This document shows, one piece after another, positions 6,155-42,689 of a stretch of 64,000 nt of DNA (position 1 is its first letter; each line of letters starts with the position of its first letter). The notes under the pieces are model-generated. The model made no database searches and was not told the origin of the DNA. It saw only the letters and a program-made list of their open reading frames with translations. The position numbers and the translations under genes are program-made. This DNA comes from Flaccisagitta enflata (Eukaryota), in contig OZ231126.1 of NCBI GenBank assembly GCA_965153355.1, positions 34,658,001 through 34,722,000 of the forward strand, written 5' to 3'.

Positions 6155-9340
<3,186 letters not shown>

Positions 9341-9472
9341 CTTTGTTGTATTGTCACAACCTCCACCTTGTCGCCAATCAGATCTTGCCTCTTTTTTTTT
9401 TCCTTACTGCAATATCAAATAACCACGACATTTAATCATGTCAAAGTGTCCATTTCAATGAAAAAAAAAGAA

Positions 9473-10072
9473 TCATTTCACATTAACACTGTAGAGCGAA
9501 TCGTTGAACGAATATTCCTTTGACATCAATTTTTTTTTCAGTAGCAAGCCTAATTTCTTCTGAAAATAACGCGAATTTTCCTGATTATACTCAGAGCAAA
9601 TAAATCGGGTGATGTAACTGCGACTCACTCCATATTTCATTCCAGATGACATGGCCGCATCCAACATCTTCTCGAATTCGGCAGAAGTAACCACATTTCG
9701 CCCGTCATTCCCAGGCTGGATCGTCATCCCGTTCTGCACCTCGATTACGTCTTTAACACGGGACTTGATTTTTTCCACATCAACGCAGACCATCCGCAGC
9801 TGCCCCTCCAAGTACGCAACTCTCTCCTCCATGGTCAAAGTGAGCAGTTGCTCATATCCCATGCTCTCAACCTCTGCACCTCGCACCCCGACGATGCCAT
9901 CAGTACATTCTTCATCCACAGCCGCGGCGCACATGAAATCGTCGTTGTCAATCGCCAAAGTTCCACATTCCAGTGGCGCGTCAGCTTGCGCATCGTCTTC
10001 TGCGCAACCGAAACCATCCTCTCCCAAATTCTTAACTTTTAATCCATCCAACACGTCATTCGAATCCGCCAT
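9473..10072 (-). CDS. Viral protein with acidic N-terminus, coiled coil and C-terminal linker-histone H1/H5-like winged helix
   Basis: FEKMLDAAMSSGMKYGVSRSYITRFICSEY..FQKKLGLLLKKKL parallels the H15 pattern YSEMI.AAI....RGGSSRQSI.KYI..HY....IKLSIRRL. First ATG is at 10072. Confidence 0.6.
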   Translation of the reverse strand: MADSNDVLDGLKVKNLGEDGFGCAEDDAQADAPLECGTLAIDNDDFMCAAAVDEECTDGIVGVRGAEVESMGYEQLLTLTMEERVAYLEGQLRMVCVDVEKIKSRVKDVIEVQNGMTIQPGNDGRNVVTSAEFEKMLDAAMSSGMKYGVSRSYITRFICSEYNQENSRYFQKKLGLLLKKKLMSKEYSFNDSLYSVNVK

Positions 10073-10340
10073 CTTCACTCCCTTTTCCAACGCCAGTCAA
10101 TTTTTAGGTAACGAGTAGCGTCTATTTCAAATCCAAATGACCAAAATCTTCCAAAATTTTAATAGTAATCCAACAATCCTTTTTTTTTCACAACGTCTAT
10201 TTTTGGCAAACTCAATCTGAGAAAAAGGTATTTACATCATATTACGATCTCAATTTACAACAAATACACATATCAATACAATTTTTTTCCAACACTCATC
10301 ACCAAGGATATACAATTCTTTCGGTATTGCAATGTAAACA

Positions 10341-11033
10341 TTACATAAGCGGTTCAGGCCAGCCCTTCTCATCTCCATCAACCCCTTCACCACTTTCATC
10401 TCCTTCATTCCCATCAACAAACAAAGTCTTTCTCACGTCTTTCCAGGCAATTCTCTCCCGTTGGATGCAAAAATCGCATATATCGACGTCCATGTTCATC
10501 CCAACGGGCACGCAGTAGCAGGGGTTACTCATTCTCCATTCCCTCTCCATGCAAACGTCGCAATAATCCGGAAAGTCGCAGGGGCAGGGGTCACGCGACG
10601 GAGTGTCCTGCAAAACAGCAGTGGCGGTCTTCTCTGCCACCATCTTCATTCGCGCTTCTACCACATCCGGCGTCACGGTTGAATTTCTTGGACTGAACGT
10701 CTCCATCCACGCCTTCTTTGCTTCGCTACTCATCATCGGCGTAACGATCAACGCACTCGTCGCCTCCACGGATGCGTCGCCCACCTTACTGCCTCCTTCG
10801 GCGCCGACGCCAAGTGGAATGGAATGGCATGCCAAATCGGGTAGATCGGGTAAGCCGGCGCCAATGATCATTGTCTCAGTTTGTTCTGATTTTCCATCGT
10901 CGTCTATCACCACTCGCAACACCCACTCCTCCAAACCATCTGCATCCCCAAACCAAGCACCACATGACCCAAGTCCAGCTACACCAACTTTGCAGTTGCA
11001 TTTACAACTACAATTGCATTTATTGGCATCCAT
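10341..11033 (-). CDS. Orphan viral protein with two CxC..CxxC motifs
   Basis: 230-aa ATG ORF co-oriented within the cluster. Confidence 0.6.
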   Translation of the reverse strand: MDANKCNCSCKCNCKVGVAGLGSCGAWFGDADGLEEWVLRVVIDDDGKSEQTETMIIGAGLPDLPDLACHSIPLGVGAEGGSKVGDASVEATSALIVTPMMSSEAKKAWMETFSPRNSTVTPDVVEARMKMVAEKTATAVLQDTPSRDPCPCDFPDYCDVCMEREWRMSNPCYCVPVGMNMDVDICDFCIQRERIAWKDVRKTLFVDGNEGDESGEGVDGDEKGWPEPLM

Positions 11034-11249
11034 TTTGATATGTACTATGCGTCATTCACTGTCAATCCAATGATATCTTTCAATCTGCAAATCAACAAAT
11101 CACAGCCACATTTAGCAACACAATTTTGAAGTAATTAACCATTTTCATCAATTATTAATTGCGACTACAAATCACAAAACAAATACTGATTCTGTATGCA
11201 TATTTGTATGTGAGCGTGGTAGATTGTTCCGTCTCTCCTCCAACTCAAT

Positions 11250-11681
11250 TTATGTACGTGGTACAGCGTTCCATCTCTCCCCCATCCATTTTGCCACGAC
11301 TTCCCTTCTTTCCTCACTAACCTTCGCCAGTCTCTCCTGAAAAATCTTCTCCTCCCTCATCATCCTCCTCTCCTCTCTCTCCTCCTCTTTCCGCTCCTCA
11401 TATGCCTCTCTCGCTCGCCACCTACAACTGCGGACACAAAGTTCACACAAATCGTGTATGTGCCTGATCTTGAAACAGCTACAGTTTTCATAGTTGTATC
11501 GCTTCCTCGGCGGTCTCTGATGATCCCCAAACTTGTCGTCAAGCGCCATCTTCTCCTTACTCCACGCCAGCGATGTCGAATAATCCAAAGTCAACTTTTC
11601 TACTTCATTGGCCAACTGCATACCCTCGTCCATTCCATTGTTTTTCTCTGCATATACACAGTCACAAAGCATTTTCTTCAT
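11250..11681 (-). CDS. Orphan viral protein (CxC..CxxC plus charged helix)
   Basis: Co-oriented ORF. The ATG at 11681 follows a TTTCAG acceptor-like site; an upstream in-frame ATG is at 11705. Confidence 0.55.
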   Translation of the reverse strand: MKKMLCDCVYAEKNNGMDEGMQLANEVEKLTLDYSTSLAWSKEKMALDDKFGDHQRPPRKRYNYENCSCFKIRHIHDLCELCVRSCRWRAREAYEERKEEEREERRMMREEKIFQERLAKVSEERREVVAKWMGERWNAVPRT

Positions 11682-11696
11682 TGAATATCTGAAACC

Positions 11697-11902
11697 ATAA
11701 ACCATGACAGCAATGAATCAATGCAATTCAAAACATAAAAAGTATAAAATCAAAATCAATGAGGCTCTACTCATGTCTGAACGAGGGGTTCAAATTAGTT
11801 AAACCTTCTGACCTGAGAAGATAAGCCACCAATTTTTAACCATTTCGGCTGTACAATTGCAAAGTTTATAATTACTCAACCACAATCAATTGTTACAGGT
11901 TT
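11697..11902 (-). repeat. 206-bp intra-viral repeat, inverted copy
   Basis: Reverse complement of 806-1011. Confidence 0.95.
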
Positions 11903-11918
11903 TCTACCATTCAAGTTA

Positions 11919-13064
11919 TCACGCCTGCAACAAATCTTCGCCACTGACACCAACGTTGTTGTTGTCGACGTTGCCGTTGTCACCATTTTCACCACCAGCA
12001 TCGGCGTTGTCGTTGTTAACGCCACCACCATCGCCACCGACGTTGTTGTCGCTAGGGACCAACAGATTCATCGCCATCTCCCATGTTTCCGCCGACATCG
12101 CCACCCACACCTCATTACCATCGTTAACATATGCCAGCGCCTTCTCCATCAATCTGTTACCAATGTCTTTGTCGCCATTCTCACCACCGGTGTCGACGCC
12201 ATCGACGACGTTGTTGCCATCGTCGCCGCTGGCGCCGTTAATGCCGTCGTCGTCATTCTCGCCACTGACGTCGGCGCCGTTGACATCGTTGTTGCCATCT
12301 TCACCACCGGCGTCGTTGACGCCACCGTCGGCATCCGCGCCACCCACGTCGGCGTCATTCACACCGTCGTCGTTGTCGTCGACATCTTCATCGCCGACGT
12401 AAATGGCGTCGTCATTGTTGTCACTGACATCGCCGACATAGTCGCCATCATCGTCGACATCATCGTCGTTGCCGTTGTCGCTATTGCCTACACCACCAAT
12501 CGCACCACTACCACAGACCTTCACCGACCTCCACTTCTCGAAAAGCCTCTGGCATTTCCGCTTTTCGCGTTGCCAGTCATCCATGTGCGCATGCCACTGC
12601 TGATCAATCCTCCTCCTTTTGAACCTTTCAGGTTCATCGCTCTCGTTCATCACCTGGCCCTCTACTTCAAACTCCGCCGACTTCAACTCCCACTCCTTGT
12701 CAATCCTCCTCTTCCTGCCCGCAACACGGACGCACTCGCTGTAAACCTTCGAACCAACCGCCATCACCCCCTTCACGTACGCCGCCATCTTCGCCAATGA
12801 GTACGACGTCCCCTCGGGCGCCGCAACACCAGATGCATTCGGGTCCTCCAATGACGATAACGGAGCACGCGTCAAGGCAACCGAGTTTTCAGAGTCTTTC
12901 CTCTCATATCTCCACACGGCGCCACCATAATCATCCAATGCGATTTTCGGTGGCTTTCTGCGATCCTCGCCTTCCTTGCCGTCGGCGCCATCCTTCAACG
13001 GTACGCATATCAGCCTGTAATGTTCTAAACAGTTGTTGTTCAGCCCATTTATGAAAGCCTCCAC
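11919..13064 (-). CDS. Orphan viral protein with duplicated KRRID.W motif and D/N/G-rich tail
   Basis: 381-aa ORF with RKRRIDKEW and KRRRIDQQW; TATA-like TATATAAATA upstream at ~13242-13251. Confidence 0.65.
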   Translation of the reverse strand: MEAFINGLNNNCLEHYRLICVPLKDGADGKEGEDRRKPPKIALDDYGGAVWRYERKDSENSVALTRAPLSSLEDPNASGVAAPEGTSYSLAKMAAYVKGVMAVGSKVYSECVRVAGRKRRIDKEWELKSAEFEVEGQVMNESDEPERFKRRRIDQQWHAHMDDWQREKRKCQRLFEKWRSVKVCGSGAIGGVGNSDNGNDDDVDDDGDYVGDVSDNNDDAIYVGDEDVDDNDDGVNDADVGGADADGGVNDAGGEDGNNDVNGADVSGENDDDGINGASGDDGNNVVDGVDTGGENGDKDIGNRLMEKALAYVNDGNEVWVAMSAETWEMAMNLLVPSDNNVGGDGGGVNNDNADAGGENGDNGNVDNNNVGVSGEDLLQA

Positions 13065-13314
13065 TTCGTCGATCCGGGCGGTTCATGACTCTTCCCGGGG
13101 TATTTCCCTCTTGCCCACGCTTCTAGCAGCACACAAAACCAGAAATTTTTTTTGCACATTGACGCGTGCACGTGAGTGGTAGGCAAACCGGCAAACATTT
13201 TCTTGTATTGATGGGTAAACCTGTAAACATGATATATACAATATTTATATACATTCACAAATGACGTGACTTACAAATTCAATCAATGCATCATCGACTC
13301 TTTACATCAAATTA

Positions 13315-13752
13315 CTAATCAGAGTCACTTGTATCACCACTTTCACTTTCACTGCTCGAGTCAGAAGACGAATCACTCGACGACGACTCTGAAGTACTAC
13401 TTGAGTCCTCGGACATCTCCTCTTTTTCCTTCTTCTTTACAGACTTCGATTTTTTGCTCTTTTTTTTCCGCTTACTACCAGTTTTTATTCCAGGTTTCTT
13501 TACCACGCTGCCCTTCTCGGTCTTTTTTTTCACAGCTTCCTTTCTTCCCCTTTTCTTCGGATTAGTCTTTTTTGCTCCACCATTTGATTTTTTTTTCGTG
13601 TCTTCTTTTCCATTTTTTTCGATAGTTTTCATATCCTCCTTGTATGTTTCCAAAGCGTCACTAACTTCAGTTGAAGTCGACATAACTGCAGCATTGCTAC
13701 TTCCACGCATTTTAGCAGCAATTGCTGATAGGGCATCACTGCTTATCGCCAT
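13315..13752 (-). CDS. Lys-rich / Ser-acidic low-complexity viral protein
   Basis: 145 aa; starts 5 nt after the minor capsid stop. Confidence 0.6.
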   Translation of the reverse strand: MAISSDALSAIAAKMRGSSNAAVMSTSTEVSDALETYKEDMKTIEKNGKEDTKKKSNGGAKKTNPKKRGRKEAVKKKTEKGSVVKKPGIKTGSKRKKKSKKSKSVKKKEKEEMSEDSSSTSESSSSDSSSDSSSESESGDTSDSD

Positions 13753-13756
13753 CTAA

Positions 13757-14629
13757 TCAAATTTTTTGAACAATATTCAATACAAATCTCAATGATTGGG
13801 TTTTCAAACAACAGCCAAAATCAAATGCTTTGAAATCATTATTTAACAAAGAAAAACTTATGTTTCGCATACCCACAGCATCGAAGCTTTTGTACGGCGA
13901 TGTAATTTTCTTCTCCAACAAATCATAACTACACACAACGCCATACTTGCCACCATTAAAATACATAGTGGGTTCTACACATCGATCGATTACCAAATGA
14001 CACATCCTTTCATCTTCTCTGAAAAATTGTACGGGTACACTGCAATTTAAGGGCTTACATATCTTCATAGATTCAACATCACACGTGGGCGCCAAAACTT
14101 TGTCTTCATTTTTTCTATTTTTAGCATCAGTTACTTCATCTTTAAAGCCCATGAACTCAAAAAGATTCATTGTAGCAAAAAATGCAAAATATTCATCCAA
14201 AATTAACTCGAACATGCCATCTACATAACGCACCGAAAATATGTCCATTACTTCATCCCTTTCCGCTTTATTGTCATCAAATGATTCGTCATCCTTTTTA
14301 ACACACTTACTCTTATACACAAAGTCATTATAAACGGCACATCTTAGTTGCTGAGCAAATTGGGTTAGGCTACTAAACACAAAAGTGTACTCCTTAACAG
14401 ATTCCCTGCATATATCAGCGGTATCAATCCCATAATGCATCGCAAAAGTAATACTCTTTTCAATAGGTGGTAATGTAAAATCTGTAACGCTCACATACAA
14501 TCCTTTTTTGCCACCAGAGTTAATGTGTAATCCAGGAAGATTCATGTGAAAACTGCTTGTTTCTTTCAGGAAACATCCATTAGAGCGTGTGTCGATTTGG
14601 ACCTCCGTCACGCTCTCCATCGCGGCCAT
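13757..14629 (-). CDS. mCP: Minor capsid (penton, single jelly-roll) protein
   Basis: N-terminal VQIDTRSN..TSSFHMNLP..LYVSVTDFTLP and C-terminal YKSF..RNISFSLLNNDFKAFDF..LRFVLNI fit the Maverick penton pattern. First ATG is at 14629. Confidence 0.7.
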   Translation of the reverse strand: MAAMESVTEVQIDTRSNGCFLKETSSFHMNLPGLHINSGGKKGLYVSVTDFTLPPIEKSITFAMHYGIDTADICRESVKEYTFVFSSLTQFAQQLRCAVYNDFVYKSKCVKKDDESFDDNKAERDEVMDIFSVRYVDGMFELILDEYFAFFATMNLFEFMGFKDEVTDAKNRKNEDKVLAPTCDVESMKICKPLNCSVPVQFFREDERMCHLVIDRCVEPTMYFNGGKYGVVCSYDLLEKKITSPYKSFDAVGMRNISFSLLNNDFKAFDFGCCLKTQSLRFVLNIVQKI

Positions 14630-15119
14630 GGCATCGATCGTCGATTCCAGCAACCACGACACGATCAACTTCTTCACTCCTCGCACCCAAATTGAATGCG
14701 ATCTCAGGACCACTGCGTCGATTCAGGCTAATTCTGACCTTCCCCGACACGCACCTACAGACGACTGCAATGGTCAAAACAGCCGCGGCGACGAACACCA
14801 GAAAATTCACGCATACGCCAACAGCCTTCAACAATCCGGGATCCGGCCCAAACTTCACAGTTGGGATGTCTCCAATCGCCCCTTCCTCCTCCCACCAAAA
14901 ACCACCACTAACGTCACCACCGCCGCGAACGTCGTCACTACCTTCTAGGTTAGTAACTGTCCAATTCACAACACTCTCCACAGTGACTTTGTCAACGTCG
15001 CCTCTTCCCTTGTCCACGCCTCCCACAGTCCCGTTTGGTACGTCCAAAGCAACCCAATAAGCGTCCCGAAGAGACGTTCCATTCACCGGCATAGTTTTTG
15101 ATTTTTTTTTGGCAAACAC
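14580..15119 (-). CDS. Single-pass membrane protein of unknown function
   Basis: Hydrophobic segment AVGVCVNFLVFVAAAVLTIAVVC; lies between integrase and penton. Start codon uncertain. Confidence 0.55.
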   Translation of the reverse strand: MFAKKKSKTMPVNGTSLRDAYWVALDVPNGTVGGVDKGRGDVDKVTVESVVNWTVTNLEGSDDVRGGGDVSGGFWWEEEGAIGDIPTVKFGPDPGLLKAVGVCVNFLVFVAAAVLTIAVVCRCVSGKVRISLNRRSGPEIAFNLGARSEEVDRVVVAGIDDRCHGRDGERDGGPNRHTL

Positions 15120-15148
15120 CTAAATTTTGTATCACAATATATACAGCA

Positions 15149-16324
15149 TCAATTTAAAGCATTTTTAGTGCAGTAAAATGTTTCATCACAATTTTGAGGC
15201 TTCAAATATACATAAACATCATCACGCTTAACAACCTCAGAACTATAAAGTACATTCAGATATCTCGCCTTGGGTAAACTCAATTCGGCATAATATTTCA
15301 ATTCCGCACAACTAAATCTCGAATCACTCACTGGTGCCAAATTAAAAACTGACGATAACAAATGATAATTCACAAATTCAATATTTACAATGTCTGTAAC
15401 ACAATAGTAATTAGTCGAAATTGACCCATACGATTCCTTTGCAAACATGCCATCTTTGGGTGCAAATTTTCTCACTTTCACTATGGCAAACAATGGTAAT
15501 TTAGTCGGCCTTATCATATTGTTCCTTGAAGACTTCCTCCTTCGAAACCGATTTCCAGCCTTTATGTTCCTTATGTGCCGTGGGTCTTGATTCAATGCTT
15601 CCTTGCTTGACATGAAATTTAAACTCGACCTTGGCTTCGAGTTGACAGCATTTTCAATTTCAAGCAATTTTTGTGCAAATGGCACATCATTCCCAATGTC
15701 ACGCATGTAAACTTCTAGATACGATCTGAATAAGCGTATACTTTGTTCGCAAACCACGTTTCCTTTACCCTTCCGTTCAAGCCTTCTTTGCCTGATGCCA
15801 TAAAATTTCAGGCCCTTGCTTTTAAAATACTGAGTTATTGTGTTGCTAAGCCATTCCACGCCTAAATCTCCCCAAATCTTCCTCGCACGTTCTGGCAGAT
15901 AAGGACTTCTCCGAAATATATCTTCAAAGGATTTTATCACCGAGTTACTTTTTGTGCTATAGCAACAAGAAAAATAACTATACAGAGAAAGGCCACATAC
16001 CATAACAAGGACGTATCGCGGACTTGAGCTTCCATAACTCCGGTTTTTGCTCAAATGACACAAATCCACATTGAGCCATTCAATGTAGTTGGGCGGAAGT
16101 ATCCACGGTCGTGACAATTCACTGGCTTTCCGTTTACTGTCATTTTTTATCAATATATCATTGCTTTTTTGCTCCGCAAGGTACTCCTTTATCTCACTCT
16201 GCCCCACGTCGAATCCCTTCTTCTTTAAATATTTTCCAATCTGCCTCGCATTCTTAGACAGAAACAACGGGGAACCTTTACCCCTAATGGCCTTTTCCAA
16301 TATTTCTCTTGACTCTACTCTCAT
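15149..16324 (-). CDS. INT: Retroviral-like (rve) DDE integrase of Maverick type
   Basis: WLNVDLCHL (D), KIWGDLGVEW (D), VVCEQSIRLFRSYL (E), plus RYVLVMVC..S.Y and VNSKPRSSL. Confidence 0.9.
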   Translation of the reverse strand: MRVESREILEKAIRGKGSPLFLSKNARQIGKYLKKKGFDVGQSEIKEYLAEQKSNDILIKNDSKRKASELSRPWILPPNYIEWLNVDLCHLSKNRSYGSSSPRYVLVMVCGLSLYSYFSCCYSTKSNSVIKSFEDIFRRSPYLPERARKIWGDLGVEWLSNTITQYFKSKGLKFYGIRQRRLERKGKGNVVCEQSIRLFRSYLEVYMRDIGNDVPFAQKLLEIENAVNSKPRSSLNFMSSKEALNQDPRHIRNIKAGNRFRRRKSSRNNMIRPTKLPLFAIVKVRKFAPKDGMFAKESYGSISTNYYCVTDIVNIEFVNYHLLSSVFNLAPVSDSRFSCAELKYYAELSLPKARYLNVLYSSEVVKRDDVYVYLKPQNCDETFYCTKNALN

Positions 16325-16347
16325 TTCTCATAATTAAATGTCGCGCT

Positions 16348-17358
16348 CTACTCTCTCCGTTTTCTCTTCCCCCTCCCCAACTCCTCCTCCTCACCCACAA
16401 AGTCAACTGTCACCTTCTTCCTCTTCGACCTTGACGTGGGATTAGCCTCCGTATCCCACTCGTGTAAAGCCTCTTCTTCCGCTTGTGGGGTTTCCAATGT
16501 TACCTTTCTCTTCCTTGGATTACTACCACTCACGGCATCTCGCCATGTCGAAGAAATCTGTTCGCGTAATTTCGGTGCTGTGCGAATTTTGTTAAGAGAT
16601 CCACTAGAGAGACCATACGATTTTTTAACTGGGTTTAATATACTTTCTTCAGCGTCATCGTCGTCGTCCTGCTCCAACCCTCTTTTCGTTCCACGCCCAC
16701 CGATTCCCGCTGATTCACCAACTCTTTCGTCACTCGCCTGCTGGGCTCCTTCCGACACAGTCTCAGTTGCAGGCGATGTATTTTCAACACTAGACAATCC
16801 TTTACTCTTTATCTCTTCAATTTTTAAAAGGGATTCGCGGATCCCCAACGCGTCGCCGTGTCTCAACAACTCAAGGGGAATCTTAATCTTGATTAAGCTG
16901 TCCAAAAACAGCGCAATTGCCAAGGGAATTTGAGATGGACTTGCCGATATGCAATATTGCACCAAATTTTTTATATTAGAAAATTTGATGTTTTCACCAT
17001 TCACAATAATCTCCAGTGTATCCGGATCAAAAGTTATGTAGTCACTTCTATCAATCTCATTCAGCAAACTCTCATTCAGCAAACTCATTGCCAACTGCTT
17101 CTCTTTTACGCCACTTATTTCATTTACAATTCGATGTATTGCCGCTTGAATTGGACTCTGAATTGGCACCGAGTTAGACTCCACTGGTGCCTCGGTAGTA
17201 TTGCTCGGCAGTTCCTCGCCAGATGGCAACACTTTCAATCTTTTTCCGTCTATTAGATTTCTGATGCTATCCAACTTCTCTTCACAGGTAACGTCTGCTT
17301 TGTTTATAATTTTTAACACATGTGGGGTTTTTAAATAATTGGTCTGATGTTCACTCAT
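16348..17358 (-). CDS. Maverick-like conserved accessory protein
   Basis: YITFDPDTLEIIVNGENIKFSNIKNLV..FLDSLIKIKIPLELL resembles, from memory, the conserved protein next to the ATPase and integrase in Mavericks; basic NLS-like C-terminus. Confidence 0.65.
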   Translation of the reverse strand: MSEHQTNYLKTPHVLKIINKADVTCEEKLDSIRNLIDGKRLKVLPSGEELPSNTTEAPVESNSVPIQSPIQAAIHRIVNEISGVKEKQLAMSLLNESLLNEIDRSDYITFDPDTLEIIVNGENIKFSNIKNLVQYCISASPSQIPLAIALFLDSLIKIKIPLELLRHGDALGIRESLLKIEEIKSKGLSSVENTSPATETVSEGAQQASDERVGESAGIGGRGTKRGLEQDDDDDAEESILNPVKKSYGLSSGSLNKIRTAPKLREQISSTWRDAVSGSNPRKRKVTLETPQAEEEALHEWDTEANPTSRSKRKKVTVDFVGEEEELGRGKRKRRE

Positions 17359-17680
17359 GGTGTAGGCAGTTTTTCAGAAAATCGGCAATGATGTAGGAAT
17401 TAAACAGTTTCCTTTCATTCTTCTTCAATTTCAAAAACTTTTTTTTTCTTTTTTTCAACGAAATGCGACTGTTTTTCAAAAAAGACAGAAGCTTCTTACT
17501 TCTTTTCATCTTCTTTCTCGTTTTTGAAGAAAAGCACTTGTCAAATCTCCGCTTGGATGCATTTTTAACTATTTCAACTACGCATTCAAACACACTAGTT
17601 TTGAGTTTTTTTTCAAAAAGAGCGTCTTCCACACACACATTCACTAAATTCTTCAGTTTTTGGGGTGATCTACAAGCCAT
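17351..17680 (-). CDS. Small basic Maverick-like accessory protein
   Basis: FECVVEIVKN..KKMKRSKKLLSFLKNSRISLKKRKKKFL resembles, from memory, the small basic ORF that follows the Maverick ATPase. Confidence 0.65.
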   Translation of the reverse strand: MACRSPQKLKNLVNVCVEDALFEKKLKTSVFECVVEIVKNASKRRFDKCFSSKTRKKMKRSKKLLSFLKNSRISLKKRKKKFLKLKKNERKLFNSYIIADFLKNCLHHE

Positions 17681-17691
17681 CCGTATGCCAT

Positions 17692-18786
17692 CTAATCCTC
17701 CTCCTCACTACTTTCATGGTAACTTGTCATCGGACCGTCCTCGGCAAGTAAAACCCGTCCCCAGAGCGTCGGTTTTGTGCACATAGGACTGACACAAGCT
17801 ATCACGTAATTAAAATTTTTTCCAAGTACTTCCCGCTTATAGACATCAAAGAGGGTCTGTCCCGCTTTTAAATTGATTTCGTAATTATTCATATGACGCT
17901 TAGCCGCGCGACGCTTAGCCGCGCGGGCGTCGTGCGAACTTTTAAAAAACACAAGATGACTTGAGTTCATGAGTATCACATTTAACTTCAACGATTTCAA
18001 AAAGATGTCGTAGCTGTGAAGGCAGATTATTGATACACACCCCACGTGATGAGTCCATATGCCAGCCAGGGAAATCAAATCCTTTCTTATCTTTTCATCA
18101 ATATTCGCATCAAAAAAGTAGTCATCTATCACTATAATTGTCGAATCTTGCACAGGTTTGCAAAAATCTAAAAAATTTCCATCTGGAAATTTTTTCGAAA
18201 ACACGGCTTCCACGCCACGCTCCGTTGCCAAATGCGTCCTCAGTCTTTCTATACTTTCACAATTTTCCTTGTAGAAATATATTATTTTCTTTATTTTCTG
18301 TCGGAAGTGATATTCATGCTCAATTAACAAGTTTGTAATCCAGGTTGTCTTGCCTTTAATTAACTTGGTCACAAAAAATAAACATTTCTAATTTTAAGTA
18401 ATTGGTAGCCCCTAATCAAAGCCCATTCAAACAAAAAATTGCCCAAAATCCTAGGCAGCTCACTCAAACAAATCTTAAGTAATCAGTAACCCCTAATCAA
18501 AGCCCAATCCAATGAAAAATGGTCAAATATTACAGGCAGCTCAAATCTTCGGTAATCGGTAACCCGTAATCAAGACCCACTGAGCTAAAAAAATGCCCCA
18601 AAAATCCTAGGCATCTTACTCAAACAATTTTTATATAATCAGTAGTCCCTACTTCTACATAAATTATTAGCTAATATTTTTTTGTGACCAACGACCAGAG
18701 GACGACTGTCCAAATACGCAAACAAAGTTGCCCGGAAAAAATTGATGACTTTTTGCAGAATAAATTTCACTTTTTTTTCCAGCCAT
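17692..18786 (-). CDS. A32/FtsK-like DNA packaging ATPase, 2 exons
   Basis: Exon 1 18786-18696 (MAGKK..FVCVFGQSSS G) plus exon 2 18353-17692 (KTTW..) rebuilds Walker A GQSSSGKT. Walker B is IIVIDDY; THH.G and MNSSHLVFFKS motifs also present. Confidence 0.9.
18365..18691. mobile_element. TIR-bounded element filling the ATPase intron
   Basis: TTGGTCACAAAAAA..TTTTTTGTGACCAA; three internal ~80-bp degenerate repeats (..CCCTAATCAAAGCCCA..). Confidence 0.7.
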
Positions 18787-18934
18787 GATTGTGATCAATT
18801 TTCAAAATGCAACTGCATATATATTAATTTCTTTTTCTTTTGCTCATCTTGCTCTTCCTTATCCATATATCTTTCTGTTTAAATAAATTTTAATTGCTCT
18901 TCCCCATTTCCTCTTCCTCCTTTCCTCCCTTTAC

Positions 18935-21900
18935 CGAGATGAGGTGCTTTAGGGCATGGTGCTCGCCGTGAGCTGTCCGAAGAGTTTCTTCCGTCGAGTT
19001 AAAATGTGTCTGAAATCAAACGTCACGGCGCCGAAAAATAACGCCCCGCATTCATGTTGAATGAATGAAGCATTTGATGAAATGAGCACAATTGCGATTC
19101 GAAAAGGATTGGCGAATAGCGAATTTAACAAGACCGACGAGAATGAAGATTTTCACGTGATGCTACATCAGCCATGCCAAACGTTTTTCTGTCGTTTGCT
19201 CGCATTCTTACCTTGTAGAGTTCTTTTTCCTTTTGAAGACCTCGGGCTAAGCCTTGCGCCTTATCTAGTTCTTCTTGTAGCTCTTTTAAGGCCGTTTTAG
19301 CAGCTGAAAGCTCGCGGTCGGTCTCATCCTTGTGACGCTGCAGCGATGTAACTTCCTGTTTGCCTCGCAATGACTCTGTCTCTCTATCAACGGCGGCATC
19401 CTTAAGGGCTTCAATCTTCTCTTGTTTCGTTTGCACGGTCTTCTCCAAATCGGCAACCTGACAGTGTCAAAGATTATCAAGCGACGATGGTACACGCTAC
19501 ACAGACCTGGGCAGATGCTAACTATACTACCCTACATGAGGAGTGGCGAGTGGGGCGTGGGGAGTGGGGAGTGGCAAGTGCCTTTTTTTGGTTTTCTCTT
19601 TTCAAACTCCTGAATCCTTTTCAATAAATGCCAAAAACAGTGTAAATGAAAGTATTGGGCGTCTCCTATAGGGAACGCGACGAGTGGGGAGTGGGAAAAA
19701 CAAAAACACGCAAAAATACAGAAACCTGAGTGGGGAGTGGGGAGTGGAGAGTGGGGAGTGGCAAGTGATTTTTTTTGGTTTTCTCTTTCCCAACTCCTGA
19801 ATCCTTTTCAATAAACGCCAAAAACAGTGTAAATGAAAGTATCGCGTGTCTCCTATAGGGAACGCGACGAGTGGCGAGTGGGAAAAACAAAAACACTCAA
19901 AAATTAGGGACCGGGTTGAGTTTAGGGTTAGGGACCGGGTTGAGTTTAGGGTTAGGGACCGGGTTGAGTTTAGGGACAGGGACCGGGTTGAGTTTAGGGA
20001 CAGGGACCGGGTTGAGTTTAGGGACAGGGACTGGGTTGAGTTTAGGGTTAGGGACTGGGTTGAGTTTAGGGTTAGGGACCGGGTTGAGTTTAGGGTTAAG
20101 AACCACATTTCAAAAAAAGTTGGCTTTAAAGTTGAAAAACTTTGCCAAACGCTGGTGTGATATTTATTAACTTTGCCGAAGGCAAAGCAAAGTTTTCAAT
20201 TTTGCTGACTTAGCCTTAGAAATACATGCTATTTCCAAGTGGGAAAATTTTGTTTTGCCTTCGGCAAAAGCGAAAAAACTTTGCTTTAGTCAAAAGTGAA
20301 AAACCTTGCCTTCAGCAAAGTTTTTCAACTTGATAAGTAAGGTAAATACTAACATCTCAACTCTAAAATTCAACCCAGTTAGAGTTGGTTAGGATTGAAT
20401 AAGGGTATGGTAAGAGTTGAGTGTTTAAGGTTTGGGTTGTTTGAATGTATGTTGCTAATCAAGTTGAAAAACTTTGCCGCAAATGAATAAATTTTTTCAA
20501 CTTTGCCGAAGGCAAAGCCAAGTCTTTCCACATCACATGTCATTTCTACTACCTTGGGGATGATTTTAACAAAACTGCTGGTTTTATTTTTGTTTTGTAT
20601 AGCCTGTAGGTGCAAGAAATGGAATCTACCAGCTTTTAAATCATCCTAAGGCCGGATTTTGAGAAAAAACACTTTTTTCCCATCCTGAGGTACAGGTCAT
20701 TGAATTTTCCCATGTTTATCTTGTTTTGCTCATATCTTTTGAACGAAAAGAGCTAGAAATGCCAGATTGGTCCCATTTTAAAGATCTGCTCAAGATCTTT
20801 CCAACCGTCACCAATTTTTTGTAAATCCGTTGAAAAATGCCCGAGATATAAGCACTCAAACATAGGGTATGTTATGAGGAATATTGACTATCTTCCTGGT
20901 CATTGATTTCTTGTCATAATTCTACTTGTTTTGCTCATAACTTTTGAACGAATAAGGCTAGAAATGCCAGATTGGTCTCATTTTAAAGATTTTTTCAAGA
21001 TCTTTTTAACCGTCACCAATTTTTTGTAAATCTAATAAAAAATGCTTGAGTTATGACTTGTCAAACATAGGTAATGTCATGGGAATCATGGAGGATTTTC
21101 CCTACTATGCGAATTAAAAAAAAAGACGCACCTTTTTATTTGATGATAAAACTGACTTGAGAATTGTTTAAAAAATTTATTAAAGAAAGTGATTTTGAAG
21201 ATTTTAAAGTTATCTTTCATTCTAGACCAATCCCAGATCTGTATCTTTAACGGTTTAGGAGCTAGAGCTCTCTAAAGTGAGACACCATTTTGGTGAATTG
21301 CATCTTTTTCAAAGGAACTGCAAAAACAAATTTGGCAACATTTTCATCAAACTAATGCCATTTCTAAATGAAAAAAGATAGAGATACCAGATTGGCGCCA
21401 AATGAAAGAGTTTTTCAAGGGCTTCAAAATGATCTATGATTTTAATTAGTTTCTATGATTGTCAATGGCGCAATCAACCATTCAAAAGTGCGTCTTTTTT
21501 TTAAATTTGTATAGTACTCTTATTCTCGCTTTGTCTATTGGTTGGTCCATCAGTCAGTGGGTTTGTTGGTTGTTCAGTTGGTCCATCAGTTTGTAACACT
21601 TAGCTTTTTTGAAGTTTACAGGCATTTTTTGCATTACTGCGACTGCCAAAATGTTTCCTCACCTGTAGAACACAGGAGGAATTCCCATATCTCAAACCTG
21701 AAATCATTCCTCTCAGTCCTCAAATCAGTGCTTTCAGGCTTTGATTGGCCCTTCAAATCCTCAAAACAACTCCCTCAAACCTCAAATTAGCCCTCACAGG
21801 CTTCAAATTAGCAGGGGTGTATATAGTTGCACGACCTTTGATTTCTCTCCCCCCCTGGTCCTTTGATTTTCTTCCCCGCGGGGTCGAAATACATTTGTTT

Positions 21901-24900
21901 TTCTTCCCCATATACCCCCTATATAGTAATATTTTTGTTTAAATAGTATTTAATAGTGTTGTGGTGACTTAGTATTACATTTTAGTACTGCCAAAAGTGT
22001 AATATCTTTTATATTTTCGTGTTTTTGCTTTTTCTACCCTTTGATTTTCTTCCCCATTTCCAAATCCTTTGATTTTATTCCCCCCCTTGCTGGGGGGGGG
22101 GGAAATATGCAACTATATACAGGCCTGCAAATTAGTCCTAGGCTTCATGTCAGCCCTCTGTCTATCCACTCATCCTCCCCTCTTAGGTCTGAACTCTACT
22201 CTCTCCAGTCTCAAAATGACCCCCTCAGCCCCCCAATCAGCCCTGTCATGCCTCAAATCAGCCCTCTCAATCCACATAACACATGCGCCACATTTAGGCG
22301 GAAAATGTGGGAACATAGTTACCATAGCAAAAACTACTCTAGTACCATGAAATTTGAACTGGAGGTAGCATTTTAGCAGAATTTTTATTAAGTATCATGA
22401 TTCAATCATAATTCAATTATTAAATGGGGTATTTCAGCAAAGATGTTGAAATTTCAATATCAAAATGTTGCTGATTTTTCCCGCACTGAAATCAAATGAA
22501 ATTGATAATCTTTAGAATACTATTACAGGACCCTGAGTAACAGGGTGTGCAAAAAAATCCGCACTCATCATCATGTCTACTAGAAAGACACCTAGAATTG
22601 GAAAAACTCTCTCTAATTAAAGTTCAAAGTTGAAAATTAGGTTATTTTTATGGTTAAGATAGGAAAAAATGTAAGTATAGTGGACAGCTGAATATATTCT
22701 TAGACCAACAATGACATAACCAGAATGTTGCAAACATTCTTTTTCTGTGAATAAATGTTTATCTTTCATCTTAATTCAATTGATGAAATCTTTTTTGTGC
22801 ACTGAAACCCCTCCTTCTTGGCCCATCCATCTCTCGCTGATGTACTTCATTTTAAACAATCCATCTAAAAACCAATGAGGTAGCTAAAATCTTTTTTTAG
22901 AAAATACTGCTCTGCCAATAAAATCATGTCAAAATCTTAATTTTTGTTTCTTTTTAGGTACATATCATGGCCATGTATAGAAATTGTATCAGCTGTTCTT
23001 GATTTCTTCTTTTGTTATGACCAACTGAGATACTCTGGTTCAAATTTTAGCTCATAACTCCTATAAGAAGCATGGATTTAAAGCAATATACTGAGTGCGA
23101 ATTTTTTTGCACACCCTGTTAGAAGAAAGTGACCAAAATTGACTAACAATCATGCACATGAGCATTTCTTAGTAATTGGATTGAATATTGTACAGTTTTT
23201 GATGATAAAACTGACTTAAGAATTGTTTTTTACCTTGAAGCTGGGATTTAGGCCTCAAAATATAGATCTGGGCCTTGAGGCTAGGATTTGGGCCTCAATG
23301 ATATGATTTAGGTTTTAAGAATTTGGGTTTTAGGCTAGGATTTTAGCCTGAAGATAAGGATTTGGGCATAGAGACTTGGATGTGGACCTTGAGGCTGGGG
23401 TTTTGGCCACTAGGCTGGAATATGGGCCTTAAGGCTGGGATTTGGGCCTCTATGCTGGGATGTCCTCCAGGTTGGGGTTTTGGCCTTGAGGCTGAGGGTG
23501 GGTACAAACTAGTCATCCAAGGATCGCACATGGTCAGCGGTACCCGATGCCCTGCTGGGAGTGATCCAGTAAATAAGTGGAGTGAGAGCAGGGCAGCGGC
23601 CCCAAAGGGCCGATGTCCTGTAGAACACAGGGGGGAATTTTGTCACGTCCATCCTTCCATCTGTCCTAAGGGGGCTCTAGATGGCTGATTTAGGCCACTG
23701 AAGGCATATTTGAGGGCTGGAGGGTATAATTAAGGTTTGGAGGGCTGGTTTCATGCTTGGAGGGCTGATTGAAGGTCTGGAGGGCAGATTTGAGGTCTGA
23801 AGGACAGTTTTGAGGCATGGGGGGCTGATTTGAAGCCAAGAGGGCTGATTTGAGGCCTCGAGGACTAAATTGAGGCCTGGGAGGGCTAATTTGAGGCCTT
23901 GATGGGGACGGAAGGACGGACAAAAGGATGGACGGACGTAACAAAATTCCCCCTGGTGTTCTACAGGACATCGGCCCTTTGGGGCCGCTGCCCAAAAAGG
24001 AGGAAGAGAAGAAGGACAAGTTTCTGCATATGTGAAAGCATAGGTCATCAGCCCTTTTGGGGTGCTGCCCAAAAGGGAAGATTTGAGACATGGGAGGGGT
24101 TCTAAGATCTGCGAGTACTGATTTGTGGCTTGAAAGGGCTGATTGGAGGGATTCGGGGCCATTTCGAGACTTTAGAGGGTGGAGTTCAGGCCTGAGAGGG
24201 GAGGATGAATGGATAGACAGGGGGCTGACATGAAATCTAGGACTAATTTGAAGCCTGAGATGGCTAATTTGAAGTTTGAGGGACTTGTTTTGAAGGGCCA
24301 ATCAAAGCCTGAAAGGACTGATTTGAGGACTGAGAGGGATGATTTTGGGTTTGAGATATGGGAATTCCTCCTGTGTTCTACAGGTGAGTAAACATTTTGG
24401 CAGTGGCAGTGATGCAAAAAATGCCTGTAAACTTCAAAAAAGCTAAGTGTTACAAACTGATGGACCAACTGAACCACCAATCAACCCACTGACTGATGGA
24501 CAAAACCAATAGACAAAGCGAGAAGAAGAGTTGGGAAAATCCTCCAAGATTCCCATGACATTACCTATGTTCAACAAGTCATAACTCAAGCATTTTTTAT
24601 CGGATATACAAAAAATTGGTGACGGTTAGAAAGATCTTGAAAAAATCTTTAAAATGAGACCAATCTAGCATTTCTAGCTTTATTCGTTCAAAAGTTATGA
24701 GCAAAACAAGTAGAATTATGACAAAAAATCAATGACCAGAAAAATAGTCAATATTCCTCATGATATACCCTATGTTTGAGTGCTTATATCTCAGGCATTT
24801 TTTAATGGATTTACAAAAAATTGGTGACGGTTGGAAAGATCTTGAGCAGATCTTTAAAATGGGACCAATCTGGCATTTCTAGCTTTTTTTGTTCAAAAGA

Positions 24901-27900
24901 TATGAGCAAAACAAGATAAACATGGGAAAATTCAATGACCTGTACCTCAGGATGGTAAAAAAGTGTTTTTTCTCAAAATCCGGCCCTAGGATGATTTAAA
25001 AGCTGGTGGATTCCATTTCTTGCACCTACAGGCTATACAAAACAGTAATAAAACCAGCAGTTTTGTTAAAATCATCCCCAAGGTAGTAGAAATGACATGT
25101 GACATGAAAACCGCAGGTATTTTCTAAGCAAAGTTAGCAAAATTGATAACTATGTTTTGCCTTCGGCAAAGTTGCAAAAATGTCACATCAAAGGAAATAA
25201 AAAACTTTGCCTTCCGCAAAGTTTTTTAACTTTTCAAAATTGAACTTGGCCCAGTCCCAAACCCTTAACTCCAGACTGCGTGTTTTGCAAGATCCCAGCC
25301 AGAAACAAAAAGTGATTTGGCAAATTGACAACCTTGTTTTATCAAGGACATTTACTCCGAAATTCACTCACTCGCCGTTTCTAAGGTAAGCAAAATGATT
25401 GAAATATAATGCAAAAGCTCTGATTTGTATTCTCTAGTTTTAACTCAACCCGGTCCCTAACCCTAAACTCAACCCAGTCGCTAACCCTAAACTCAACCCA
25501 GTCGCTAACCCTAAACTCAACCCAGTTGCTAACCCCAAACTCAACCCAGTCCCTAACCCTACCTAAACTCAACCCGGTCCCTAACCCTAAACTCAACCCG
25601 GTCCTTATCTCTAAACTCAACCCGTCCCTATCCTAAACTCAACCCGTTCCCTAAACTCAAACCTGTCCCTAAAAACTCAGTCCCTAACCTAAACTCAACC
25701 CGGTCCTAACCCTAACTCAACCCGTCTCTAACCCTATACCCGGTCCCTAACCCTATACTCAACCGGTCTAACCTAAACAACCTGTCCTAAAACTTCAACC
25801 CGGTCCCTATCCTTAAACTCAACCTGCTCCCTATCCCTAAACTCAACCCGGTCCCTAACCCTAAACTCAACCCGGTCCCTAACCTTAAACTCAACCCGGT
25901 TTCTGTATTTGAGTGTTTTTGTTTTTCCCACTACCCACTCATCGCGTTCCCTATAGGAGACGCGCGATACTTTCATTTACACAGTTTTTGGCATTTATTG
26001 ATAAAGATTCAGGAGTTGGGAAAGAGAAAACCAAAAAAAATCACTTGCCACTCCCCACTCGCCACTCGCCACTCGCCACTCGGGTTTCTGTATTTTTGAG
26101 TGTTTGGTTTTCCCACTCCCCACTTGTTGCGTTCCCTATAGGAGATGCGCGATACTTTCATTTACACTGTTTTTGGCATTTATTGAAAAGCATTCAGAGT
26201 TGGAAAAGAGAACACCAAAAAAAATTACTTGCCACTCCCCACTCCCTAACCCTAAACTCAACCCGGTCCCTAACCCTAAACTCAACCCGGTCCCTAATCC
26301 TAAACTCAACCCGGTCCCTAACCCTAAACTCAACCCGGTCCCTAACCCTAAACTCAACCCGGTCCCTAACCCTAAACTCAACCCGGTCTCTAACCCTAAA
26401 CTCAACCCGGTCCCTAACCCTAAACTCAACCTGGTCCCTAACCCTAAACTAAACTCAGCTCGGTCCCTAACCCTAAACTAAACTCAACCGGTCCTAACCC
26501 TAAACTAAACTCAACCCGGTCCTTATCCTAAACTCAACCCGGTCCTATCTCTAAACTCAATTCCCTATCCTTAAACTCAACCTGTCCATCCTAACTCAAC
26601 CGGTCCTCAATCAACCAGTCCCTAACCTAAACTCAACGGTCTTAACCTAAACTCAACCGGTCCTTAACCCTATACTCAACCTGTCCTAACCCTAACTCAA
26701 CCTGGTCCTAACCCTAAACTCAACCTGTCCCTATCTAAACTCAACCTGGCCCTTATCCCCAAACTCAACCCGGTCCCTAACCCTAAACTCAACCCGGTCC
26801 CTAACCTTAAACTCAACCCGGTTTCTGTATTTGAGTGTTTTTGTTTTTCCCACTCCCCACTCATCGCGTTCCCTATAGGAGACGCGCGATACTTTCATTT
26901 ACACAGTTTTTGGCATTTATTGATAAAGATTCAGGAGTTGGGAAAGAGAAAACCAAAAAAAATCACTCGCCACTCGCCACTCGCCACTCGCCACTCGCCA
27001 CTCGCCACTCGCCACTCGCCACTCAGGTTTCTGTATTTTTGAGTGTTTGGTTTTCCCACTCCCCACTTGTTGCGTTCCCTATAGGAGATGCGCGATACTT
27101 TCATTTACACTGTTTTTGGCATTTATTGAAAAGCATTCAGAGTTGGAAAAGAGAACACCAAAAAAAATTACTTGCCACTCCCCACTCGCCACGCCCCACG
27201 CCATTGAGGGTAGTATAGTTAACACCTGCCCAGACCTGCCCTGGTGTAACCGTCCGCGCATCAAGACTTAGTGCACAGAATCATTCCTAATGAAAACGGT
27301 AATGCTGTTGTTTAGACGACGTGTACCCAGGGACTGACAGAGGCCTATACAACCTATACAAAATAACAGGGGCCGGGGCCAGAGAAGGCCTGAAGATACC
27401 CTAAATTTAATACAGAGAAGAAAGAGGAAAAGGGAGGAAAAAAAAAGAAAGAATACAAATAGAAAGATGAATAAGAATAAGTCCTGAGCCCTACATTCAC
27501 TTATTCTGATGATTGGTTACCATATTTTGTTCTTATTTGCAACAGATCAAAGAGCCTTGTTTATCACTTGTGTGGATTTCACTCTTTATAATGACTGAAT
27601 GCGCGTCAATTGCCAAGAAAGTAAAACTTATTTGGGAAGACGTGCCTTTTACACCAGAAATAGACTTACCTTGATGGACTGCTCCTCTTGCGATTCTTTT
27701 GCGCGATGAAGTAGAGCAGCCAACTCTTCGAGCTCTTTTTCTCTTGCCTCCAACAATCTCTCCGCGTCGTTGACCTAAGAGCGCAAACGACATGACCAAC
27801 CGTTACGCTTCACATTATTTTTTTACTACATAAAGTAAGCATTCTAGAAATAGGCGGCATTGGATGGCCACCAGGACTTAATCAAAATACTGCCTAGTTG

Positions 27901-41160: not shown

Positions 41161-42087
41161 CTTTTTTTCTTTTTGGTCAAGACTTACAGCTAGAGGTATG
41201 GAACTATATTCACTCAAAGCTCTTGCCCATCAGCTTTCAGAAAAACCATAGTTCAAACTACTTCATTAAGATAGTGCAGCAGGAAATGACCCTCCATCTG
41301 AGGTCCTTATTGCTCCCATCGTACTGTAGCAAGAGGACCAAGTTTAGCCAATGTTACCAAAAAAATTGTTTAGAAAATCTATACTATCTTATTTTTAGTC
41401 ACTGACGAGTAGCTGGTCAAAATTTTAAATTTGCATAGGAAATAAAAAAATAAAAAAACAAAGAACATACTTCTCTTCCCAAATTGATTACAGAGAGAAC
41501 TATGTTCTTTAAAATGCAAAATTTCCCTATGTTTGGCTTTCTTAGAATTTCGACCTCAGAAAATGAAAAAAAGTGTAAACAGAAATTCACTAAAAAACAT
41601 CATTTTCATTCTTATTTTCATGTGGAACGCATAGTTCAAATTACATTTTAAGTCAGAATATGATAAGAATGTATGCATCAAGTGTCCTTAGAGACAATTT
41701 GTCCACTTAAAGCATTCCAGCTTCATTATTGTCCTGATAATAATGCAAAAAGTATGGTGAAACACTTCATTTTTCTTCATAAATTTTCTGTCTTTAGGTT
41801 CTTCATTTTTTGGCTGATTAGCCGGGGTAGTGGGATCACAAAAATTGGACGGGGTGTAAGACACCTCACCCTAGTAAAACTTCTCATTAAATACACTTTT
41901 TTTTTTTTATAAGAGACAAGATTTTTAAACTCAGCCTGGATGTTCTTAAATTTTTTGCTGTTTTGAGGCTCAAATTCTCTTAAATTGTTCTTATTTTTTT
42001 CGACGCGTGAAATATGGAAAATTATGTTTAAATACACTATTTACATGGAAAACAATGTATAAATACACTATTTCGTAGTGTTCTATG

Positions 42088-42390
42088 CAGGGGTGTATAT
42101 TCTTGAGTCGCTTTTGATTTTTTTCCCCCCCTGCCTTCGATTTTCTTCTTTTTTTTATCTATGATTTTCTTCCCCATAGAGCAATAAAACTATGTAGCTA
42201 AGGTTTAGATAGTGTTAAATTTTGTTTTACTAATTGGGTTTCATGATTTAGTACTGTCAAAAGTTATATTTTCCCCAAATTTTCTTTTTTTCTCTTTTTT
42301 CCCCCTTTGGTTTCCTTCCCCATCTCCAGACCCTTTGATTTTCCCCCCCCCCCCACCAGGGGGGGGAAAACTCAATAATATACAGGCCTG
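42088..42390. mobile_element. hAT-type MITE (third copy)
   Basis: CAGGGGTGTATA..TATACAGGCCTG with TSD GTTCTATG. Confidence 0.92.
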
Positions 42391-42689
42391 GTTCTATGTA
42401 TTTTCAATTGAAAACTTGTTAGTTACTATAAAACTTTAAATATCTTGTTCAATGTGACAAACAAAACCAAAAAAGAAAGTCTTTTTCTGAAAAATTTACA
42501 AATTTCGAAAAAAGTTTTAGGATTGTCATATGTTTTATCAAGAGACTCAAAAAAAACTTCCTAAAAAATTTCCAAAATTGAATCTCAGCCTGGGCATTCT
42601 CTTATTTTGTTCTTAAAATTTCATCAAATCTCAGCCTCATGTCTCTTATAAACTGGTCTCTTATAAAATAAAAAAAGTGTATTGTCTCA

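Follow-up and report, generated by a model that had tools for sequence, protein, structure and literature searches.

The window analysed here, a 64-kb stretch of the Flaccisagitta enflata genome (GCA_965153355.1, OZ231126.1, positions 34,658,001–34,722,000 of the forward strand; coordinates below are those of the window), joins a virus-like unit directly to exons of a gene resembling TAX1BP1, a selective-autophagy receptor, innate-immune regulator and brake on antiviral signalling. Host exons and viral genes are co-oriented on the minus strand, the viral genes running from 18786 down to 1486, and the join falls at 18927/18928. At this one base the window departs both from the mRNA product of the gene and from the contigs of two DNA runs, in all of which the gene is uninterrupted; we are highly confident that the breakpoint lies in coding sequence and that an intact form of the gene exists. 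The reading that we favour, tentatively, is a genuine insertion in the germline, an allele that disrupts an exon and is not fixed (heterozygous, rare or recent). The first-pass annotation of this stretch had already placed a virus-like unit beside TAX1BP1 exons in the same orientation, and the exon fit and the run of viral genes bear this out; its two explanations for the arrangement, an intronic provirus or a truncated host paralogue fused to the virus, have fared less well, as set out below.

The host exons belong to a TAX1BP1-like gene

When the 82-codon exon at 19457–19212 was used as a query, one of five matches among 753 candidates was P0001 (100% identity), a 963-residue product of a 3817-nt Logan contig that is intronless and is therefore read as an mRNA product. 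P0001 begins with the N-terminal SKICH domain that characterizes the TAX1BP1/CALCOCO receptors (Pfam, 4.2e-31) and carries an autophagy-receptor zinc finger (PF18112, Zn-C2H2_12, 1.3e-5); among solved chains its best match was the SKICH domain of TAX1BP1 (1.5e-37, vs. 5.2e-28 for CALCOCO2), with a further match to the ubiquitin-binding zinc finger (UBZ) of TAX1BP1 (3.9e-6). A tblastn search combined with GT-AG fitting placed seven minus-strand exons between 33343 and 18928, coding for residues ~45–363 of P0001 with AG/GT borders and one substitution (P55H) in 319 residues. The SKICH domain is spread over exons at 33343–33231 (residues ~45–82, including the substitution; acceptor approximate), 30671–30569, and 30324–30149 (with linker), and the first and third of these match SKICH (PF17751) directly, with E-values of 2e-11 and 1.3e-4, respectively. 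Coiled-coil exons fitted to P0001 follow at 28055–27924 and 27774–27670, and then the 82-codon coiled-coil exon that served as the query; the last host coding stretch, 19009–18928, encodes THFNSTEE..HLIS and VK and ends on the first base of codon 364. The 82-codon exon together with 19009–18935 translates exactly to residues 255–361 of P0001, again with AG/GT borders. By these sequence matches we assign the host exons to a TAX1BP1-like gene.

Residues 1–44 and 364–963 of P0001 are coded nowhere in the 64-kb window, in agreement with the earlier finding of no later TAX1BP1 exon; as nothing beyond residue 363 is coded, the gene as assembled lacks the C-terminal ubiquitin-binding zinc fingers that P0001 possesses. 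The single substitution lies at 33314, where the window has His and P0001 has Pro. Five RNA runs contain 0.37 of the sampled words, about the share that falls in the two host exons nearest the join (268 of 731 positions), which would be compatible with clean host mRNA. Long tandem arrays with 24-nt and 187-nt units, some of them TTAGGG-like, occupy parts of the host intron (19541–20098 and ~25000–27100).

The join probably lies within codon 364

The last visible host exon had been taken to end at a donor at 18935, some 150 nt from the ATG of a viral ATPase gene at 18786. An exon at 19009–18935 does exist and matches P0001, but the donor probably does not hold, as identity runs on to 18928: the bases GTA AAG (18934–18929) that had been read as the start of an intron code for the same V-K that follows HLIS in P0001. 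The mRNA product reads HLIS-VK-ESEIK, whereas the window reads HLISVK and then GGKEEEE.., the two diverging at 18928/18927, and VKESEIK is kept in four of four products (P0001 and three relatives, with LI[S/L]-VK-ESEIK).

We placed the reads of four runs on 8720–19500, namely DNA runs X1, X2 and X3, of which X1 and X2 are labelled with the same species as the window, and RNA run X21; statements about the contigs of X1–X3, here and below, rest on 24 of more than 12,700 pieces. A host contig of X1 (870 nt, depth 169) agrees with 18928–19500 at all 573 positions, those of the intron among them, and its 258 letters past 18928 match nothing in 8720–19500. A host contig of X2 (776 nt) matches 18928–19375, and its 328 further letters likewise match nothing in that interval. 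Because the contigs of both runs and the mRNA product leave the window at 18928, the join can most likely be placed in coding sequence, between the first and second bases of codon 364 (of 963), and the uninterrupted exon is most likely the main form in X1 and X2. An exon end with a donor at 18935 (TCG/GTAAAG, weak) is probably not real, and an intact exon ending at 18929 (AAG/GT), which would put the join inside the donor dinucleotide, is unlikely.

The ~150 nt between the proposed donor and the ATPase ATG are accordingly not an intron, since they are made up of 7 nt of coding sequence and ~140 nt of viral terminal sequence. The latter, 18927–18787, is the purine-rich, non-coding end of the element and precedes the ATPase gene on the minus strand; over 18800–18927 its depth is near the viral depth in X2 and X3 (by arithmetic from depth bins). 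Reading through the join would add GGKEEEEMGKSN to the host protein, followed by a stop at 18892–18890. The first-pass annotation had also described a CAG through which host mRNA could be spliced into the virus, reaching a stop after five codons just before the ATPase start, and all of these letters are in place (CAG at 18815–18813, LHFEN, TGA, and the ATG at 18786).

No inverted repeat links 18700–19010 with 1–1600, the best local alignment score being 24 against a mean of 22.5 and a maximum of 29 in 50 shuffles, and a seed search over 1–20500 found no terminal inverted repeat (TIR) of the element; the earlier statement that no long TIR was found in the window stands. The bases at the join, GTAAAGG, recur only at unrelated positions, a single junction is visible in the window, and at the join no repeat is shared between the host and viral sides.

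The virus-like unit is a divergent Maverick-like element

All open reading frames (ORFs) of ≥100 residues with a likely function between 18786 and 1486 are on the minus strand. We searched the larger ORFs against Pfam and PHROG, and the polymerase, integrase candidate and ATPase against PDB sequences, and none of the viral ORFs gave a match above threshold. The unit is nevertheless a divergent Maverick/Polinton/adintovirus-like element of ~18.1–18.5 kb or longer, a placement made because it combines a family B DNA polymerase (PolB), an integrase candidate, an ATPase and a fitting size. Alignments of PolB and the ATPase yielded no relatives in IMG/VR, and none were found in JGI metagenome contigs; Rfam and tRNA scans of the 64-kb window were also without a match.

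The gene for a protein-primed PolB (5405–1486, minus strand) is split in the window into ORFs of 520 and 786 residues that overlap at 3852–3843. In a search of 5.8 billion proteins it is a single ORF of 1292–1310 residues in 12 of 12 relatives, the closest being 99% identical, and a phmmer search of 1.84 billion representatives gave a family of 60 proteins at E ≤ 1e-3. By sequence the polymerase matched nothing in Pfam or the PDB, and its family profile found only C2H2 fingers in the PDB. An AlphaFold (AF2) model of the C-terminal 788 residues, built from a 49-sequence alignment, reached a pLDDT of 91.4 and a pTM of 0.90. In a Foldseek comparison of this model with the PDB, phi29 polymerase took the top four places (E-values of 1.9e-4 to 6.2e-4, probability 1.00), with the other listed structures being family B polymerases as well; a second comparison (VIA) gave phi29 polymerase Z-scores of 21.3–22.4 over 407–419 residues at a root-mean-square deviation of 3.6–4.7 Å, with other PolBs at Z ≤ 12.4. 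Against BFVD there were 36 matches at E ≤ 1e-3 (best 3.9e-11), led by PolBs of bidnavirus-like, adintovirus (3.4e-9), MELD-virus (3.9e-8) and adenovirus origin. The modelled polymerase has the protein-primed (phi29-type) PolB fold. A first model from 13 sequences (pLDDT 52), whose Foldseek matches were insignificant, is superseded by the 49-sequence model. The protein also has an N-terminal extension of 520 residues with a C2H2 finger and an insert of ~320 residues, one BFVD match of which is a type II restriction-endonuclease-like protein (8.2e-4), and it carries NTDG at the position of motif C, which is usually DTDS in PolBs. The split of the gene adjoins short homopolymer runs.

The ATPase gene, the first of the element, begins with an exon at 18786–18696 that encodes MAGKK..GQSSS and the first base of a Gly codon. 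An apparent GT..AG intron of 342 nt and phase 1 (18695–18354) then divides Walker A (GQSSSG/KTTW), and a second exon (18353–17692) supplies Walker B, IIVIDD. Excising 18695–18354 joins GQSSS-G to KTTW in frame and restores GxxxxGKT, so that the interval has GT..AG borders, a pyrimidine tract and a restored frame and motif, as a spliceosomal intron would; it contains 81-nt tandem units, about three of them, and a run of T that is one letter longer in X1–X3. The ATPase has 19 relatives, and in all of the eight relatives' products that were examined, which come from unspliced contigs, conservation starts at or after GKTT and never upstream; for this reason the split of Walker A is a family trait and the interval probably an intron. 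Apart from its P-loop Walker A (with the intron removed) and Walker B, the ATPase had no family or structure match in the Pfam, PHROG and PDB sequence searches, in which the FtsK/HerA type was not recognised.

The integrase candidate is a 391-residue ORF at 16324–15149 (minus strand). It had no Pfam, PHROG or PDB sequence match; by language-model features the Atlas clusters closest to it are ones with PF00665 rve (score 0.97, recognition 3387), and 10 of the 10 best Atlas matches that have a family agree on rve. The spacing of D, D and E was judged by eye, and we regard the assignment as a lead and not as proof.

Copy number and state of the element

Viral and host depths were ~330 and 169 in X1, 117–150 and 151–176 in X2, and 12.7–15.4 and 5.8–6.8 in X3, giving viral/host ratios of 0.8–2.3 across the three DNA runs, as expected for an element with roughly one or two copies in each host genome, depending on the sample. 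Element sequences co-occur with those of the host in marine and environmental DNA runs, and X1 holds at least two viral haplotypes (e.g., at 13402 and 13457). Over the viral stretch the contigs of X1–X3 differ from the window by 0.4–1.4%; they lack two in-frame 15-nt duplications that the window contains (17055–17086, among the ORFs between the ATPase and the integrase candidate, and 17895–17925, in ATPase exon 2), and the window also differs from them at several single-base indels, one of which is in the T-run. In one X2 contig 13074 is connected directly to 16879, so that 3804 nt, the integrase candidate among them, are missing; its short side measures 29 letters, less than the guide value of the tool, for which reason it was not used, and it may be spurious or a deletion variant.

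Within the element, at 8943–9276, is a host insertion of 334 nt that resembles a miniature inverted-repeat transposable element (MITE), with inverted ends of 22 nt. Copies at ~72% identity are found in the host part of the window (21812–22127 and 42085–42391), in X1 its depth reaches ~1e5, and contigs from both X1 and X2 pass over 8938–9275. Because it contains a host MITE and a split polymerase gene, the element of the window looks like a resident, decaying genomic copy.

A 206-nt intergenic repeat (11697–11902), which includes the start of the ORF at 11705–11250, has inverted copies at 806–1011 (99%) and 1117–1235. We rejected these as the TIRs of an 11-kb element, given that the two halves of the unit carry one complementary gene set; the depth at 11697–11902, ~10–13 times the viral depth in X1–X3 by arithmetic from depth bins, also counters such a role. 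This roughly tenfold over-representation suggests a dispersed, perhaps regulatory, repeat. A large double-stranded DNA virus with hr-like repeats was also considered, a weak proposal that nothing else supports.

Leftward from the stop codon of the polymerase come 250 nt of unique sequence, the inverted copies of the 206-nt repeat, 350 nt of unique sequence (457–805), (GAAA)12 (409–456), and a 21-nt satellite (12–371), unrelated to the arrays of the host intron, that leads to the window edge. Neither the remainder of the interrupted exon (ESEIKTLQ..) nor any other host exon was found at this left flank within the window; either the element extends further left than the window, or the flanking sequence there belongs to a locus other than TAX1BP1. 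Between the satellite and the repeat copies, in the unique stretch, is a small plus-strand ORF (610–729, 39 residues, basic and then acidic) whose start context is strong and which may be host or viral.

The remaining ORFs, all on the minus strand, are less informative. Between the ATPase and the integrase candidate, a basic ORF of 117 residues and one of 336 residues (17704–16348) have no family match. A 290-residue ORF (14629–13757) is a possible penton or minor capsid protein on a weak Atlas lead: it is near unnamed viral and Parabasalia clusters (0.96), at a recognition of 1916 that is below the guide value of 2300, and one cluster has PF21507 V18-19 on 10% of its members. Five co-oriented ORFs follow (13752–13315, 12788–11919, 11705–11250, 11033–10341 and 10072–9473), which are of low complexity, Cys-rich or, in the case of the last, similar below threshold to linker histone H1 (E = 0.0028, 18.3 bits vs. 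a cutoff of 22.4). Three short ORF pieces in three frames (7328–6155), without a family match, may be one broken or spliced gene. No major capsid protein (double jelly-roll) or adenain-like protease was recognised among the ORFs against Pfam and PHROG.

Weighing a real insertion against its alternatives

Under the insertion reading, a degraded Maverick-like copy would have been joined in sense orientation to the TAX1BP1-like gene at 18927/18928 by the element's own integrase, and the remaining exons of the gene would be found to the left of the window. The product of such an allele would consist of the SKICH domain, part of the coiled coil and 12 virus-encoded residues before the stop; it would be without the 600 C-terminal residues, the ubiquitin-binding zinc fingers among them, and host transcription would run on into the viral ATPase gene. 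We favour this reading on four grounds: the join falls at the apparent outer end of the viral unit, where 140 nt separate it from the first gene; host and virus have no repeat in common that might have misled an assembler; an integrase candidate is present; and the copy number differs between samples. A good deal nevertheless weighs against it. No X1–X3 contig among those shown spans 18927/18928 as the window does, and in both X1 and X2 the host contig runs across 18928 unbranched where an allele at 50% would normally break a de Bruijn contig; contig assembly does drop rare variants. A simple insertion also predicts ESEIKTLQ.. beyond the other end of the element, a sequence that the window does not contain, and the leftmost 460 nt of the window are simple repeat and satellite. 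Neither a TIR nor a target-site duplication (TSD) was detected at the element, and a decayed copy, with its MITE and split PolB, fits a recent insertion poorly unless the damage preceded mobilisation or is an assembly error. RNA run X21, of which ~6% was read, is uninformative, with one read on the whole 10.8 kb and 0 on the host exons. The more ambitious version of the insertion reading, that a still-mobile, integrase-bearing Maverick-like virus of a marine animal inserted in sense into the TAX1BP1 orthologue and now segregates there as a natural truncating allele, seems doubtful to us.

We consider it nearly as likely that the join is an assembly chimera in which the host locus was connected to a viral copy from elsewhere (e.g., one beside the left satellite), whether by a chimeric read, by an error in the assembly graph or by switching from one viral copy to another that is 99% alike; no genome would then carry this junction, or none with this left flank. 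The X1 and X2 contigs, which have full host depth and turn to a different continuation precisely at 18928 with no branch there, are what a chimera would produce, as are a left flank of satellite in place of the exon remainder and the two or more viral haplotypes of X1; the private 15-nt duplications, the single-base indels and a PolB split at homopolymers fit an imperfectly polished long-read assembly, and a decayed copy is odd as a recent insertion. Against this, no repeat is common to host and virus at the join, single-read chimeras seldom survive in the middle of contigs from modern assemblers, and the join is at the apparent outer end of the viral unit, as integration would have it. The first-pass annotation had proposed that its view would fail if reads revealed a misassembly or if the host gene spliced cleanly over the element with no chimeric transcripts; part of this has come about, as contigs of two DNA runs and the 963-residue product have another continuation at 18928. 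Integration in somatic tissue or at an infection stage, with an active, integrase-bearing virus at high load entering many sites and one such event captured in the assembly, would suit the viral depth (~2.0 times that of the host in X1, ~0.8 times in X2 and ~2.2 times in X3), the integrase candidate and the absence of the junction from the shown contigs of other runs; it is improbable in view of the host MITE and split PolB, which point to long residence in the germline, the single read in X21 on the 10.8 kb and the lack of relatives in IMG/VR.

The two explanations offered at first are less probable again. For a fixed TAX1BP1 paralogue, truncated at codon 363 and fused to the virus with the intact gene elsewhere, one may cite the absence of residues 1–44 and of everything past 363 from the window, and the one amino-acid difference from P0001 (P55H). 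The X1 contig is, however, identical to 18928–19500 including the intron, and it crosses the breakpoint unbranched at single-copy depth, whereas with two copies twice that depth and a branch would be expected; the outer exons are in any case expected to be missing given introns of 2–8 kb, and we regard such a paralogue as highly improbable. An intronic, end-truncated provirus, spliced over or read through, has the least to recommend it and appears very remote, also in the variant with an exon end at 18929. GTAAAG (18934–18929) is donor-shaped, and AAG/G at 18931–18928 also suits an exon end, with the join one base into the intron. The breakpoint is, however, 7 nt beyond the proposed donor and most likely inside codon 364, the six supposed donor bases code for the V-K of the conserved VKESEIK, the X1 and X2 contigs share the bases of the window to 18928 and not merely to 18935, and a priori a breakpoint has a far smaller chance of falling within 1–7 nt of a splice site than of falling somewhere in an exon.

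Comparison with known elements

In the sections of the survey cited here, Mavericks span 12.7–24.6 kb, their vertebrate TIRs measure 46–1447 bp, and most genomic copies are degraded and without discernible TIRs (PMC8097293). The element of the window agrees with these in its size, protein-primed PolB fold, rve-like integrase candidate and P-loop ATPase, and it too is a degraded copy in which no TIR was found; its purine-rich end loosely resembles the (AG)3 end motif, and the layout of genes on one strand has a precedent in a Xenopus tropicalis Maverick (PMC8097293). It differs in that none of its proteins reaches a Pfam threshold, PF03175 and rve included, that no major capsid protein or protease was recognised, and that neither a TIR nor a 6-bp TSD was found, with one junction in the window. 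Its PolB is set apart by the C2H2 extension of 520 residues, the ~320-residue insert and NTDG in place of the usual motif C, and its ATPase by the apparent conserved intron, in contrast to vertebrate Mavericks, the intact copies of which are reported to be intronless (PMC8097293).

Adintoviruses and MELD viruses, described in the part of the source drawn on here as animal-associated and as encoding PolB and integrase (PMC8502044), are linked to the element by their PolBs, which are among its best BFVD fold matches; sequences of the element also turn up in environmental DNA runs alongside those of the host. There is no similarity at the level of sequence, and, unlike those viruses, the element is known here as an integrated (or so assembled), damaged copy, with no free viral genome or capsid genes shown for it. 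The kind of element is known; its lineage, with orphan sequences, an apparent conserved intron and an extended PolB, is a very divergent variant.

A virus-derived sequence in an animal TAX1BP1 locus has been described before: a filovirus VP35-like endogenous element lies in the 3'-most intron of TAX1BP1 in cricetid rodents and, as presented in the portion of the paper cited, derives from an RNA virus as a fragment that is orthologous and fixed and that left the gene intact (PMC4157239). In the present case a whole DNA element would sit in coding sequence, without being fixed, at a candidate junction. That TAX1BP1 is common to both is most likely a coincidence. A literature search of limited reach found no description of this element lineage or of such an insertion.

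Implications

This analysis provides no evidence of a functional tie between the element and TAX1BP1, and if the junction is a chimera the assembly needs a flag. If it is real, it would be a natural knockout or truncation of a gene of innate immunity and autophagy by a DNA virus-like element, and the element lineage would still be inserting. A segregating truncating allele, if that is what it is, would keep the SKICH domain and part of the coiled coil, lose the UBZ and place the viral ATPase under host transcription. The lineage itself is poorly known, with 60 polymerase clusters among 1.84 billion representatives, and it widens the known range of animal Maverick/adintovirus-like elements.

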